The notes under the pieces are model-generated. The model did not search any database. It was not told where the DNA came from and was given only the letters and a program-made list of their open reading frames with translations. Below are positions 8,611 to 34,120 of a DNA stretch of 64,000 bases, piece by piece (positions within the stretch are counted from its first letter, which is position 1; every line of letters starts with the position of its first letter). Origin of the DNA: Eledone cirrhosa (lineage: Eukaryota); contig OZ024766.1 of assembly GCA_964016885.1 (NCBI GenBank), forward strand, positions 14,136,001 through 14,200,000. Direction: 5' to 3'. The position numbers and the translations under genes were made by a program.

Positions 8611-8851
8611 GGAAAGTTATATTTAAATTGTTGGGTTACAACTAGTAAATATTTATAACTGATATAAAAGCACTCGACAAGTATTTGGAGTATATTTACA
8701 GTATTAAAAATGGAAACTATATTTATAAAACCATATTTATTTCATTATATATATTTCATTATATATATTAACTGCCAATTCAACTTTTCAAATACAAGTC
8801 GATGTTGTTACGGTATGTCAAATCTATTTATCTATAAAACTGTTTATATTG

Positions 8852-8918
8852 TATTTTGTCTGAGGAAGGCATAGCAATATTGTTAATATGATATCCCTGA
8901 AATATATATAATGAAATA
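8852..8918 (+). ncRNA. Type I hammerhead ribozyme motif
   Basis: TATTTTGT-CTGAGGA-AGG..CCT-GAAA-TATATA-TA-ATGAAATA; its 3' half and tail are inverted-duplicated at ~8697-8758. Confidence 0.7.
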
Positions 8919-8959
8919 AATATGGTTTTATAAATATAGTTTCCATTTATTTAATACTG

Positions 8960-9330
8960 TATATATATATATATATATATATATACATATATATATATAT
9001 ATGTATATGTGTATATATATATATATATATATATATATATATATATATATGTATATATATATATATATATATATATATATATATGTTATATATATATATA
9101 TAATGTATATATATATATTATATATGTATATATATATATATATATGTATATATATATATATATATGTATATATATATATATATATGTATATATATATATG
9201 TATATATATATATATATATATATATATATATATATATGTATATATATATATATATGTATATATATATATATGTATATATATATATATGTATATATATATA
9301 TATGTATATATATATATATGTATATATATG
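8960..9330. repeat. (TA)n/(TATG) microsatellite
   Basis: Direct reading. Confidence 0.95.
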
Positions 9331-10333
9331 TAGGAGGTGAGTTTTATTGTAGTACAATAAAGCAATGCAGATATCGGATAAGAAGACAAAAAAATTATTA
9401 TTATTTTTTTCTCCCCATCAACGAACTCATTATTAATACATATCAATTCAATATACAAACTTTAACTTCACATTATTTTTCTCAAATCCTTCTACACACA
9501 AACCATAACAATTTTTCTCTTCGCTAATTTTGAAATTGCCACAATACATACATTTCTTCTTTTGACGTTAGAATATTCACCCACAATTATTATTTTTTTC
9601 TCTCTATCTTCATACATAATTTCCCTTCGTTAATTTTCAAATTCCTTTAATTTATACATTATCTTCCAACGGTTCCCAACCTCTCTATATTAAAACAATA
9701 TATCTTTTTCTCAGTTATAAAAACTATCTCTTTCTCTCTATCACCCATCTCTCCCTCTCCACCTTCACTCTCATCTCCTCCCCCCTTTTTTTCATCCTTT
9801 CCACCCCACCCCCACCCCCTCCCTAAATAAAATATTTTTTCCTCGCACATATCCTCCCTTCGTTAATTTTCAAAATTTTTAATTTATACAGTATCTTCCA
9901 ACGGTTTTCAACCCCTCTATGTAAAAAATATATCTCCTCTCAGTTATAAAAACTATCTCTTTCTCTCTATCACCCATCTCTCCCTCTCATCTCCTTCCCT
10001 TTTCATCCTCCCCCCCCCCCTCTCTAAATAAAATATTTTTCCCAATATCACACATCAATCTAAAACCACTTTTCATATGTTGATTTAAAACTGCACTATC
10101 AACAAGTGTTTTTTAGCCTTCATATCATGTTCTCCTGTTTTATCTGATGAAAACACAAATATTATTGCTTGATGATGTTTGTTTTTGAAATGCGCATAAT
10201 AAAATATATGGAACTCCTTTAACCATCTTTTGATCTTATATTATGCATACTCCAGTCCCACAAACTGTAGAGTGCTTCTTATCCGATATCTGCATTGCTT
10301 TATTGTACTACAATAAAACTCACCTCCTACATA
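9328..10333 (+). mobile_element. Non-coding Penelope-like remnant with a ~58-bp inverted terminal duplication
   Basis: ATGTAGGAGGTGAGTTTTATTGTAGTACAATAAAGCAATGCAGATATCGGATAAGAAG (9328) is the reverse complement of ~10275-10332; contains a hammerhead and an internal ~230-bp tandem duplication (9622/9856); embedded in (TA)n. Confidence 0.7.
10137..10205 (+). ncRNA. Type I hammerhead ribozyme motif
   Basis: GTTTTAT-CTGATGA-[~16-bp hairpin]-GAAA-TGCGCA-TA-ATAAAAT. Confidence 0.85.
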
Positions 10334-10517
10334 TAAGTGTGTATATATATATATATGTATATATAATATATATATATATATATATATAGATATATATATA
10401 TATATAAAAATGTGTGTATATATATATATATATATATATATATATATGTGTATATATATATATATATATATATGTGTATATATATATATATATATATATA
10501 TATGTGTGTGTATATCA

Positions 10518-30557: not shown

Positions 30558-32085
30558 ATCATCTTCATCATCATTTTACATCCACTTTTCCCTGCTTGCA
30601 AGGGTGGGACGGGTCCTATTCAGCACAGCATCTCTCGACTTGTCACGGTCCTTTGTCATCTCCTCTATGAGCTTCAGCGTTCTGAGGTCTTCTCTCACCA
30701 CCTCTGCTCATGTTTTACATGGTCTACCTCTACTGCGTCTTTCTTCTACTGGGATTTCTTGGCACTTCTTTACCCAGCGGTCATCCCCCATGCGCATCAC
30801 ATGTCCATACCATCTCAGTCTTCTCTCCTGCACACCACAACCTATCCCTCTTATACCCAGTTTCTTTCTCAACTCATCTATGCTTGGTCGTTCACACACA
30901 TTGACATTGCACATCCAACGGACCATACTTGCTTCTCTCCAGCCTTCACATATCCTTTGCAGTTGCTGCCCATGTCTTACTACCAAGCAGCATCTCACAC
31001 AGGCATCATATAACCGTCCTTTCGTATGCAGGGAGAAACCCTTCTTTGTCAACAAAGGAAGCAGCTCCCTAAACTTCTTCCAACCCATCCTTACTCTAGA
31101 TACTATGGCCTCGGACCCCCCCCCTCCCATGCTAATCTGATAACCTAGGTACCAGAAGCTATCAACCACTTCTATAGAACCCACCTGCATTGGAAAAATG
31201 TGTCTATCACTGCGACTCCTACTGTCAAATGTCCCTGTACATCTACTGCATATGTAGTTTTCCCTACCTGTTAGTTTGCCTACTATCCCACTACATCTCT
31301 TGTGTACCTAAGATCTGCATTGCGTACATTTTATGGAATTTATGCCAGTTCCTTTCCTACATATCGAACATGGCCATTTCCCTGATGGAATCAGAGTTTT
31401 GTCCTCTTTTCTACTCATCAACACTTTTGTCTTAGCTATGTTCACTCTCAGGCCTCTTGATTCCAACTGCTGTTTCCAGAGCCAGAATTTATACTCTAGC
31501 ACCTCTACTGATTCTGCTTTAAGAACCAGATCATCAGCACAGAGAAGTTCCCATGGGCATCCAGTCTTAAACTCCTCTGTTATGGCTTGGAGGACTATAA
31601 TGAACAAGAGTGGGCTGAGGGCCGAACCCTGATGTACACCTACTTGTATCTGGAATTCCTCACTAAATTCCATTCCTACCCTCACTTTACTGACAGCACC
31701 CCTGTACATAGCTTGCACTGTCCTCACAAGCCATTCCTCTACACCTAGTTTCCTTAGGGACCACCAGATGACAGATTGGGGTACCCTATCAAAGGCCTTC
31801 TCTAGGTCAACAAAGACTAAGTATAGTGACTTATTCTTCTCTAAGAACCTCTCTTGCAATTGTCTCACCAAGAAGAGGGCATCTTTTGTACTTTTCCCAG
31901 GCACAAAACCAAACTGCATCTCATCTAAATTGACCCTTTCTCTAATCAGCTAATATTCTCTCTGCCACTATCATAACCTGATCCATCAGCTTTATGCCCC
32001 TATAATTGCTCCTCTCCAGAGCATCCCCTTTATATATGTAGCAATTTATGAGAATACTGCTGTACCAGTCTTTGGGTATGACACC
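30558..32085 (-). mobile_element. RTE-clade LINE fragment
   Basis: YKGDALERSNYRGIKL; QFGF..FVDLEKAFDRV..HQGSALSPLLF..ADDL..KWPCSIC; RLRWYGHVMRM; (GAT)n tail. Confidence 0.92.
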
Positions 32086-32195
32086 ATATATATATATATA
32101 TATATATATATATGTATATATATATATATATATATATATTCTAGCATGGAAAATGGACGTTAAATGAAGATGAGGATGATGATGATATGTATATA

Positions 32196-33088
32196 CAGGA
32201 TGTGAACGATATTTGGTCGCAATTTTCAACTGCTAATTTTATGCAAATTTTTTTTACTTCCGTTGTCACTCTTGTCCTCATAAAAACAGTGACTATATTT
32301 CCATTATTTATTTTCAGAATAATTGATTATGAATAATTTTGAAACTCCAAATTTGAGGAAGAGACACAGAGTTCTTCTTGGAATCAGCGCCAGGAGGACA
32401 AATAAGACCAGAAGATAAACTCTCAGAACAACAGGTGGCTCGCTGTCTCATCCAAAGACGTGCCCAGAGTCATGCAGACAGAGTTTCCAGCGACAACATT
32501 GGTCTCAGGTGTCGTCAGCAGTCAAGGTGACGTCACGCCACCTCACTGTTTCCCTGAGGGTCTCAAGCTGAACACCGATGGCTACATCTGCGTTCTGAGC
32601 GAGGTAGTAAAGCCCTGGATCGACCAGGTAGCTGCAGGTAGGCCGTACGTGTGGCAGCAAGAGTCAGCGCCCTGCCATACCAGCCGAAAGTTCCAAGCCT
32701 GGCTGTCAGAGAACTTCGTCGATCTCACCTCCCCTGACATCTGGCCTCCCAGCTCGCCTGACTGCAACCCCTTCGACTTCTTTGTGTGGGGCGCAGTGGA
32801 ACGAGACACCAACAGATCCAGCTGCAATACGAAAGACGATCTGAAGACCAGGATCACAAGTCCCTTTAGGGGCCTAAGTCGGGGGGTCAGTGACGAAGAC
32901 CTGTGGCCGGTTCTGAGGCCGCCTTCAGGCCGTCATCAAAGCCAATGGCGGGTTTGTCGAGTGAGATTGAAAGAACAAGTCATGAAGACAAACTGACCCA
33001 AGTTTTATAAATAAATCTTAAAAAATAAAACTACTGTGTTACTTTCTCCTAGACAGTTATCTTGCAAACAAATATCGTCCACACCCTG
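32196..33088 (+). mobile_element. maT (DD37D) transposon, internally deleted, copy 2
   Basis: Same TIRs and the same deletion junction as copy 1; D->E change at QQE. Confidence 0.92.
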
Positions 33089-33897
33089 TATGTATATAGT
33101 CAGCTTGACAGTGACACAGAGGAGGCTGAGGTTAGCTGGACATGCTTAACGACATCCAGAGTTGACACTGCACTCAGTGCTCCTGTAGGAGCCCCTGCAT
33201 TGACACACTGGACGAGGAAGACCAAGGTTAACATATATTGATGCTCTCAGGACAGGCACTGGTGTCTTGGAGATGCAGGACATGGGAGCGATAATGAGGG
33301 ACAGAGACCACTGGAGAGAACTCATCCATGGATCTCGTGAATTTACAAAATATCCACATTTATGTGTAAATAAAAACAATTTTATAACTTTAATGTTTGT
33401 TGGATGGTACTTTCATGACAGTTGAAATTATGACTTTTTAAAAATTAATTCACATTTGAAAATACAACTTTCTTCACCCATTCCTGAGAGGGTTGTAGGG
33501 GGTAGAGTCCTCACACACCCCTTCTAGGTCCTATGTTTGTAAAATGTCCTCTATATACTACACACACACAAAACCACATCACTCTGCACACACACACCAC
33601 ATCCCACACAACAGACATACACCATACCACACCAAACCACATACAAACCAGGTAGTTATACCAACCCAGTATCTTGGTTTTAGTGATTTTTTTGTAACAA
33701 ATCTCAACATCCCAGTCCTTAGCAACTGGAGTGGAACTCATCAGATTGGATATTAAATGATGAGCTGTGACATCATTGGTGTCAACCTGTTTCAGCCATT
33801 CCTTTGGACAACATTATAGTGTATGTATGTAGTATATATATATATATATTTATTAAAATAACAGATTAAAGTTTAAGCAAAGAATCGCTGCTTTCAC

Positions 33898-34040
33898 CTT
33901 CTAATCTATTGTAAAACTGTATTCATTGATCAATGAACCCCTTGTTAAACTTTTGGTTATATATATATATATATATAGCCAAAAGTTTAACAAGGGGTTC
34001 ATTGATTAATCAATGAATAAAGTTTTACAATAGATTAGAA
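33898..34040. repeat. ~60-bp inverted repeat centred on (TA)n
   Basis: CTTCTAATCTATTGTAAAAC..CCCCTTGTTAAACTTTTGG / CCAAAAGTTTAACAAGGGG..GTTTTACAATAGATTAGAAG. Confidence 0.85.
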
Positions 34041-34120
34041 GCACTCAACAGATAGGTTTTCTGGAGTTATTAATATTACTTCAAAATATTAATAAATATA
34101 GACATACATGTGATCAAATA

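Follow-up and report, generated by a model that had tools for sequence, protein, structure and literature searches.

Copies of Hydra-clade Penelope-like elements end just before either of two bulged hairpins

A short motif in the 64-kb window (the whole stretch of DNA analysed) sits in end fragments of Penelope-like retroelements within (TA)n and is one half of a twin arrangement. We observe a shared sequence, covarying pairs, the twin arrangement and copy ends lying 0-9 nt before either hairpin. Copies stop a few bases before either hairpin and therefore the hairpins likely tell the reverse transcriptase (RT) where to start. With moderate confidence, and from comparison of sequences, we propose that RNA hairpins bound by the RT determine two internal starts of reverse transcription, one a short way upstream of either hairpin, with the tail lying between them.

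Motif, hammerheads and (TA)n in the window

Four matches to the motif are present in the window, at 8669-8691 (minus), 10249-10276 (plus), 11596-11638 (plus) and 34040-34067 (minus), as compared to none in 100 dinucleotide shuffles, which bears out the four sites with ACTCC and GAGTGCT parts given in the preliminary description. GTNGAGTGCT alone is found four times, compared with a mean of 0.10. Type I hammerhead cores with a palindromic helix III were located by script upstream of the motif and in the same sense at +10144, +11491 and -34178. The features of the window are as follows.

1543..1720, plus: further Hydra-type hammerhead, core 1548; possible long-loop variant ACTCT (1649) .. ATTGAGTCCT (1711-1720), uncertain
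8669..8691, minus: element 1 hairpin on a tailed, 5'-truncated inverted copy (about 8612-8758); model E 0.03
8852..8961, plus: element 1 sister copy with full hammerhead, core 8860, predicted cut after 8910; it passes into (TA)n, the first mismatch being 5 nt before the hairpin position
9333..9385, minus: inverted short copy of the element 2 post-hairpin segment; 5' edge 2 nt past the hairpin stem
10136..10206, plus: element 2 hammerhead, core 10144, predicted cut after 10198
10249..10276, plus: element 2 hairpin, a motif match; model E 4.7
10277..10331, plus: remainder of the element 2 tail, ending at (TA)n
11374..11429, plus: degenerate hairpin-like sequence (from its fold) at the extreme 5' edge of element 3, possibly a second hairpin
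11486..11540, plus: element 3 hammerhead, core 11491, predicted cut after 11535
11596..11638, plus: element 3 hairpin with a long loop; model E 0.66; the local minimum-energy fold differs from the proposed stem
18149..18189, minus: variant hairpin TCTCC..GTCGAGC with a mismatched outer pair, in the tail of an endonuclease-bearing element; its inverted sister (20080-20276) halts 3-4 nt before it
19347..20066, minus: Hydra-clade linker and GIY-YIG endonuclease remnant, from sequence motifs
23703..23804, plus: hammerhead copy related to element 3, meeting (TA)n about where the hairpin would begin
23820..23896, minus: 3' end of the 24.8-kb Hydra element, by eye; hammerhead-like motif with one core change, no tail
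24813..25499, minus: Hydra-clade linker and GIY-YIG endonuclease remnant, the query for all relatives
33850..33953, plus: back-to-back hybrid of a 24.8-kb-family 3' end and a short post-hairpin family 4 copy, the latter starting 2 nt past the hairpin stem
34040..34067, minus: element 4 hairpin; model E 0.014; tail on to (TA)n at about 33978
34121..34186, minus: element 4 hammerhead, core 34178, predicted cut after 34129
34251..34366, plus: element 4 inverted sister copy, stopping 3-4 nt before the hairpin position

The position downstream of a hammerhead stands for elements 2, 3 and 4. The element 1 motif is carried by an inverted, 5'-truncated copy with only the GAAA/cleavage half (8758-8708 is the reverse complement of 8898-8948), while the full core is at 8860 on the plus copy, which ends before the motif. 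A spacing of about 70-95 nt had been given; measured from the cut site, ACTCC begins after 50, 60 and 61 nt (54 nt in element 1, counted by eye) and GAGTGCT ends after 77-103 nt. The (TA)n said to follow shortly after is present, 50-65 nt past the motif. ACTC and GAGT do pair, and the pairing is longer than first described, with a fifth pair and an upper stem above a 2-nt bulge.

At gathering score, Rfam gives no hammerhead or other family match in the window, nor any family match in 8 of the 97 loci described below, searched at E up to 1. With that same threshold the window yields 200 matches; among the 150 listed all are microRNA models, mostly on (TA)n or inverted repeats.

Clade membership of the elements

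Both endonuclease remnants (24813-25499 and 19347-20066) carry a CxCX5C linker before the C-terminal GIY-YIG endonuclease, and CxxC and CxH motifs flank a conserved E and N (C182/C185, E188, N201 and C210/H212, invariant in A1). RWK and DKT motifs are present in homologues, the window remnants being without this N-terminal region. Pfam does not detect these endonucleases. A homologue search with the remnant at 19.3 kb, at similar length, found none, and no endonuclease relatives were found in viral contigs. All window elements adjoin (TA)n. A canonical hammerhead lies near the 3' end, with core and three helices found by script and cleavage predicted. Tandem repeats of at least two hammerhead units were not seen; self-comparison of the window gives single or inverted copies.

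Only the variant hairpin at 18149-18189 is linked to an endonuclease remnant. Since elements 1-4 have no adjacent ORF, their clade is deduced from the motif, the hammerhead type and the target, and they most likely belong to the Hydra clade. The hammerheads, earlier called otherwise unrelated, are most likely different families of one clade.

The motif in independent loci

Using the endonuclease remnant at 24813-25499 as query, 97 loci were fetched by protein similarity alone. The motif is present at +38 to +67 nt from the cut in 47 of 63 Hydra-type hammerheads (distinct, with at least 100 nt downstream), as compared to 52 of 12,600 shuffles. Several of the remaining Hydra-type hammerheads run into a microsatellite at +30 to +60, and six have neither hairpin nor microsatellite. 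The suggestion of a conserved, positionally fixed cis element downstream of hammerheads therefore held in this sample, which takes the place of a whole genome. The motif is clade-limited here: none of six non-Hydra-type hammerheads carries it, so that a general feature of all Penelope-like element (PLE) hammerheads is unsupported. The four Naiad/Chlamys matches shown lie outside this context, in a display whose line wraps may hide matches. None of 119 chance hammerhead-like matches carries the motif. Pattern scans of viral and prokaryote contigs gave motif counts in the chance range, with a hammerhead core upstream of 0/9 and 0/4 motif-like matches, respectively, the loci of one viral scan being left out.

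The motif is also present at most 70 nt from the ATG in 30 of 34 ORF starts, the other four being without the pattern (shuffles 50/6,800; inside ORFs 1/478), and two hairpins precede the ATG in 22 of 27. The second lies 12-58 nt before the ATG. Hairpins are 54-84 nt apart in the loci, and the tail in the window is about 80-105 nt. Carriers span 22 endonuclease clusters at 70% identity with a median pairwise identity of 48%, and their flanks and loops are unalignable. Chance, or shared ancestry without function, is hardly credible: the motif is short and its carriers are all from one clade, but the shuffle controls (window, ORF starts, hammerheads) and this divergence stand against it, and it is refuted because position is fixed and pairs covary across divergent families.

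Structure and covariation of the hairpin

The consensus in the loci is GCTCY..RTNGAGCACT, with a 4-bp lower stem, a 2-nt 3' bulge and a variable upper stem. With pairing not demanded, 89 of 95 hairpins have the pair above the bulge (C-G 53, U-A 33). The upper stem pairs in 143 of 199 cases as compared to 28-49% when slid, and two-sided changes number 98 against 34 in shuffles (112 distinct rows). This covariation supports a hairpin. Almost no variation is seen in the lower stem (4 of 6 pairs are constant), and therefore most of that stem gives no covariation. The C-G/U-A switch requires about seven changes on the endonuclease tree, only one of them forced by well-supported branches. Folding of the whole region is mildly better than shuffles (z -1.7 and -1.5). 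At flanked stem positions G-U outnumbers A-C by 8 to 3, weak evidence that may point to the sense strand.

The outer pair is G-C in 81 hairpins and A-U in four, the A-U version coming from the window's four; the A-U/G letters of the window are a minority variant of the G-C/A consensus. The element 2 hairpin differs from the pre-ATG hairpin of locus L160 only at the outer pair (A-U/G-C) and the next base. A hairpin model built without window sequences places three of the window's four at the top ranks in 64 kb; the variant at 18149-18189 is absent from its matches. Of 92 hairpins, 42 have a TA dinucleotide beginning at -6 and 30 have one beginning at -8. The sequence AGYRCT forms a degenerate palindrome.

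Two known signals were rejected: a splice donor, on account of the extra base after GT and the variable R-T-N, and a Pol III B-box, since compensatory pairing is present and its generally known consensus is not matched.

Copy ends at the hairpins

Fifteen repeat pairs within a contig are informative. In every one of them the shorter copy ends 0-9 nt ahead of a hairpin, hairpin 1 in seven pairs and hairpin 2 in eight. These pairs were selected for having a hairpin within 75 nt in one of the two copies; the remaining repeat pairs are uninformative, and L217 was left out as undecidable. In L162 an indel makes the distance 28 nt when the copies are aligned in one of the two directions. Three pairs in the window likewise end 0-9 nt before a hairpin. 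In the element 2 family many copies end at 10241-10248; among the raw reads, 298 pass into (TA)n after 10244 and 197 after 10241, and the depth of contigs drops across the end point in three of three contig sets. Ends into non-(TA)n flanks are found at the same offsets from the hairpin in L161, L190 and L192.

One tailed and one tailless arm are seen in three inverted pairs of the window and four in L162, L177 and L222; element 2, with two tailed ends, is the exception. Two short window fragments (9333..9385 and 33850..33953) stop 2 nt from the other (3') edge of the stem, and no such fragment is found in the 97 loci.

Full-length copies in L211, L204 and L130 have their 5' end at these points too, which a simple linear template leaves unexplained; in L211 the tail is repeated at both ends.

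Model for the choice of ends

We suggest that the motif is the first of two conserved bulged hairpins between the hammerhead and the start codon of Hydra-clade elements. The hairpins would fold in the sense RNA, each binding the element's RT, and copying would start a few bases upstream of each. The RT-endonuclease protein may nick (TA)n and prime there, often aided by the TA dinucleotide that immediately precedes the hairpin. Copying begun ahead of hairpin 1 would give a tailless end, and copying begun ahead of hairpin 2 an end whose tail contains hairpin 1, the optional tail being the stretch between the two start sites. Were both sites used at a single break, one on each strand, inverted pairs with one arm tailed and the other tailless would result. 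A circular or tandem RNA template could also give 5' ends at these points. Of the functions offered at first, an RT-binding hairpin fits best, and an internal promoter or a processing signal fits less well.

The one element in which tail boundaries have been shown to be RT initiation sites, as far as the cited sections go, is the Anolis Poseidon element (PAc), where RT starts at two internal sites in vitro with the tail between (Frangieh et al. 2024, PMC11167929). PAc shares with the window elements two boundaries downstream of the hammerhead, a tail between them, an AT-rich target and a stem-loop at the start region. However, it is of a different clade and sequence, and its region lies inside the ORF, whereas that of Hydra elements is 5' UTR. 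Its tail is 30-40 nt; the tails found here are longer than the 30-40 bp given for PLE tails, at 54-84 nt across the loci and some 80-105 nt in the window. Its start is placed in an AC-rich stem-loop with no conserved twin motif named in those sections, unlike Hydra elements, which have a conserved hairpin after each boundary. By eye only, a hairpin bulged on its 3' side can be read in the printed PAc template at about +121 to +147; it closely follows the 111-118 start region and falls within the minimal +172 RNA. The PAc protein is predicted to be a dimer (PMC11167929). It is possible, though we put it forward tentatively, that a Penelope RT dimer docks on the twin hairpins through its two subunits, with a start set just upstream of each hairpin. 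The tail would then equal the spacing, the geometry would be common to endonuclease-bearing PLE clades, and some 100 nt of cassette would suffice to turn whatever RNA lies upstream into a template for this enzyme, a sister of telomerase.

Alternative explanations

The main rival, though an unlikely one, is that the hairpins act in DNA, as single-stranded cDNA or extruded duplex recognised by the GIY-YIG endonuclease, which would cut just upstream and so resolve longer cDNA or nick resident copies. The 5' ends in L211, L204 and L130, the L211 tail at both ends (as expected of staggered cuts) and the palindromic AGYRCT would suit it. The tail is also needed for recognition by the Drosophila Penelope endonuclease (as cited in PMC11167929) and was ascribed to endonuclease-mediated resolution (Craig et al. 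2021, PMC8557442). Against this, Poseidon RT starts coincide with tail ends in vitro (PMC11167929), variable loops and G-U pairs (8 to 3) suit RNA, and a circular or tandem template could also yield such 5' ends.

We find it improbable that the motif is an internal promoter or translation signal, with ends there only through TA-rich letters annealing to the (TA)n target. The TA at -6 or -8 and the closeness of hairpin 2 to the ATG are in keeping with it, and in silico the 34-bp repeat of Drosophila is scored as a promoter, but that repeat is dispensable for normal transcription (PMC2377424). A duplex promoter is not expected to show compensatory pairing, ends into non-(TA)n flanks keep the same offsets, and ends cluster although the UTRs are AT-rich throughout.

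Telomerase has a template boundary, and hairpins could similarly be stop signals on an antisense template. Since the two short fragments of the window end 2 nt away from the far edge of the stem, the hairpin may block synthesis; antisense templates have been proposed for Penelope elements (PMC3846280). This is very improbable nonetheless, Poseidon using sense RNA in vitro (PMC11167929) and 3'-edge stops being confined to the window.

Comparison with other elements

Hydra-clade PLEs (Craig et al. 2021, PMC8557442) have in common with the elements studied here the endonuclease motifs, the (TA)n target, inverted truncated copies and hammerheads with a helix III of 8 nt or longer; in its cited sections that work makes no mention of hairpins or of a link to element ends. 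By eye, the published Hydra-1_Ajap consensus has twin hairpins before the ATG and starts 2 nt before hairpin 1, Hydra-2_Amil and Hydra-2_Ajap have a single hairpin at their 3' ends, and variant hairpins are present in Hydra-1_Obim and in Hydra-1_Crog, where C-G replaces the U-A pair. Non-LTR retrozymes (PMC7229834; bioRxiv 10.64898/2026.07.22.740005) are likewise short non-coding hammerhead-bearing derivatives of pLTRs. However, they form tandem arrays, whereas the window elements are dispersed single or inverted copies, and the cited sections describe no comparable downstream motif. The literature searched, in the portions covered, held no description of the hairpin motif.

Bulged or structured RNAs position a reverse transcriptase on its template in the hepadnavirus epsilon, the R2 3' UTR and the boundary elements of telomerase RNA. 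In contrast to these, the Hydra hairpin is duplicated, and its place is within the next unit's 5' UTR, downstream of the start proposed to depend on it.

Significance

Template choice, the optional tail and inverted ends of Penelope-like elements are questions two decades old. In the only such element to have been reconstituted, the RNA signal has been pinned down no further than a 172-nt region. A short motif that covaries and is present twice predicts both copy ends within a few bases and so offers exact mutations to test. The hairpin motif can also serve to annotate Hydra-clade elements and non-coding derivatives of them, and it gives a way into template recognition in telomerase's closest retrotransposon relatives. 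Hairpin-set starts, if true, would explain the odd extra tail at one element end.

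The hairpin motif in the window

The four copies of the ACTCC..GAGTGCT-type motif reported in the preliminary description were recovered, with no match in 100 shuffles. The retroelement fragments that carry them are named elements 1-4. The window consists of animal DNA in which (TA)n is abundant and which also contains LINE fragments and tandem arrays; its features are listed below.

8669-8691, minus: motif of element 1
10249-10276, plus: motif of element 2
11596-11638, plus: motif of element 3
34040-34067, minus: motif of element 4
24813-25499, minus: GIY-YIG remnant 1, by protein similarity
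19347-20066, minus: GIY-YIG remnant 2, by protein similarity
11731-12012, plus: frameshifted GIY-YIG remnant of a different, non-Hydra type, adjoining element 3
26103-27359 (plus), 30708-31949 (minus), 34345-35763 (minus), 29594-30235 (plus), 2686-3150 (plus): set comprising LINE reverse transcriptase fragments (a PHD match in one of them), an AP endonuclease, a weak DDE_3 match and a zinc knuckle
38614-49691 and 50538-55214: long tandem arrays, repeat units ~21 and ~80 nt, several reading frames open
22848-23444: 170-nt tandem repeat including a tRNA-like SINE head (by eye)
5035-5464; 10518-10967 with 16247-16726; 33978-34358: inverted repeats

The 80-nt array unit matches the LINE fragment near 30795-30878, and the overlap of the inverted pair at 34 kb is a near-perfect palindrome running through both hammerheads. 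GIY-YIG remnants 1 and 2 share 34% identity and both match proteins of ~700 aa bearing the features which define the Hydra clade of Penelope-like elements (PLEs) in the passages of PMC8557442 consulted.

Type I hammerhead cores with a palindromic helix III were located by script at +1548, +8860, +10144, +11491, +23708, +34259, -34178 and -22630, together with further doubtful ones; Rfam reported none in the window at gathering score. The motif does lie downstream of the hammerheads as proposed earlier, at 50-61 nt from cut site to ACTCC rather than ~70-95 nt, and (TA)n indeed follows, beginning 50-65 nt beyond the motif. The element 1 motif sits on an inverted truncated copy without the first half of the hammerhead core. 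The hammerhead with core 22630 (22540-22700, minus) has no hairpin within ~130 nt downstream; LINE-like sequence apparently interrupts it ~30 nt past the cleavage site.

Position of the hairpin in independent loci

Loci outside the window were fetched by endonuclease alignment and not by the motif: 78 metagenome loci (from the best 80 of 379) and a further 19 from host-contaminated prokaryote assemblies. The animal-type retroelements within bacterial genome assemblies (L208-L226) are most likely host contamination. Downstream of the hammerheads the consensus reads GCTCY..RTNGAGCACT. With a pattern demanding no pairing, the positional enrichment called for in the preliminary description was found in these loci: the motif lies at +38 to +67 in 47 of 63 distinct hammerheads (helix III of at least 8 nt and at least 100 nt of downstream sequence; nine near contig ends set aside) against 52 of 12,600 shuffles. 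Hammerheads with a shorter helix III carried it in none of six cases.

A hairpin also ends 12-58 nt before the ATG in 30 of the 34 ORF starts with enough upstream DNA (of 38 distinct), compared with 50/6,800 in shuffles and 1/478 inside ORFs, and two hairpins, 33-56 nt apart, precede the ATG in 22/27. The element order is hammerhead, ~50 nt, hairpin 1, ~40 nt, hairpin 2, ATG.

Structure and covariation of the hairpin

Of the 95 distinct hairpins compared, 81 have G-C as the outer pair, the four of the window have A-U and 10 are mismatched there, the last including cases where the script picked an inner CTC. The pair above the U-N bulge is formed in 89 of the 95 (C-G 53, U-A 33). The next three pairs are formed in 143/199 cells, against 28-49% when slid. 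Two-sided changes numbered 33 versus 10.6 (42 rows) and 98 versus 34 (112 rows fitted to the model), counts which are inflated because the rows are related. The C-G/U-A switch requires ~7 changes on a tree of 32 rows (those of 91 loci with a label), of which strong branches force only one.

A covariance model built from 42 non-window hairpins placed three window motifs at the top of nine hits at E up to 10, the fourth having E 4.7. In the 97 loci the same model gave 121 matches, the training rows counted among them, and in 80 viral control loci it gave one. The inner sequence of the element 2 hairpin is identical to that of the pre-ATG hairpin of locus L160 (5085-5122, minus), and no similarity was found between the two beyond it; the same inner hairpin stands after a hammerhead in one element and before the ATG in another, otherwise unalignable one.

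Copies end just upstream of the hairpins

For elements 1 and 4 and the 19.3-kb element (the copy carrying GIY-YIG remnant 2), the sister copy is inverted and enters (TA)n 1-5 nt before the position at which the other arm goes on into the motif. The element 3 relative at 23708 has its end close to the same position. Among raw reads over 9340-10330, 298 break off into (TA)n behind 10244 and 197 behind 10241; ACTCC begins at 10249. These reads come from 4 of 24 listed runs and stand among the loose ends listed, beyond which there are 298 further entries. In each of the three contig sets, depth is highest over the 3' part of the hammerhead and drops by 60-84% on reaching the hairpin bin; the reads are reduced-representation, and depth is therefore uneven.

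The independent loci gave the same picture. In 15 of 15 informative within-contig repeat pairs (at least 90% identity, one copy with a hairpin in the next 75 nt), the shorter copy diverges 0-9 nt before the hairpin, a zone where a uniform end is expected ~13% of the time; the remaining pairs were uninformative and L217 undecidable.

Divergence points of the informative pairs
Before hairpin 1, seven pairs: L153, L158, L199, L222 (twice), L177 (variant hairpin), L162
Before hairpin 2, eight pairs: L133, L160 (twice), L161, L190, L192, L202, L211

Cross-contig comparisons within families show the same peak, near -3, plus scattered earlier break-offs due to family divergence. A TA dinucleotide is frequent at -6 or -8. 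Three full-length copies (L211, L204, L130) also start at hairpin-upstream points. Two window fragments stop 2 nt from the 3' edge of the stem, where stalling at an occupied hairpin may have halted them; none did so in the 97 loci.

At 33850-33953 the ends of two different families abut back to back with no intervening (TA)n, and two RNAs may have been used in one insertion. Element 3 (11373-11688) may be an internally deleted unit of 316 bp, both ends of which lie just before a hairpin 2. In L130, L218, L219, L222, L224 and L225 the ends of several PLE families share (TA)n tracts, some with another hammerhead type.

A possible role in reverse transcription

On the simplest reading, the element protein would bind to each of the Hydra hairpins, which would fix the start of reverse transcription just upstream. 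Copying that began before hairpin 1 would produce an end without a tail. If it began before hairpin 2, the end would have a tail, the optional extension, and this would contain hairpin 1, the motif seen in the preliminary description. Anolis Poseidon (PAc), the one reconstituted element, has two internal start sites that flank the genomic tail; reverse transcription extends both target strands, and a dimer is predicted for the protein, according to the passages of PMC11167929 consulted. Read by eye, the PAc template printed in that paper would form a 5-bp lower stem, a 3-nt 3' bulge and a 5-bp upper stem at ~+121 to +147, directly following the 111-118 start region. Protein binding by the Hydra hairpins, and the use of strands and of a dimer, are inferred.

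Cutting of DNA by the endonuclease just upstream of the hairpins is a live alternative, as it would explain why 5' ends of full-length copies fall at the same points. Such 5' ends call either for DNA cutting or for a template that is circular or in tandem.

The tail, inverted copies, hammerheads and the Hydra clade are already described in the literature. By eye, the published Hydra consensi in the part of the PMC8557442 supplement consulted include three of six with a canonical motif, two with variants and one ending before the motif position. The consulted passages of PMC8557442, PMC11167929, PMC4209133, bioRxiv 10.64898/2026.07.22.740005, PMC7229834, PMC3846280, PMC2377424 and PMC6765202 contain no description of the motif, and literature searches returned nothing further on it. 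The motif is real, and it is apparently an undescribed RNA element of a known retroelement class, tightly tied to the PLE tail, a known feature without a mechanistic explanation.
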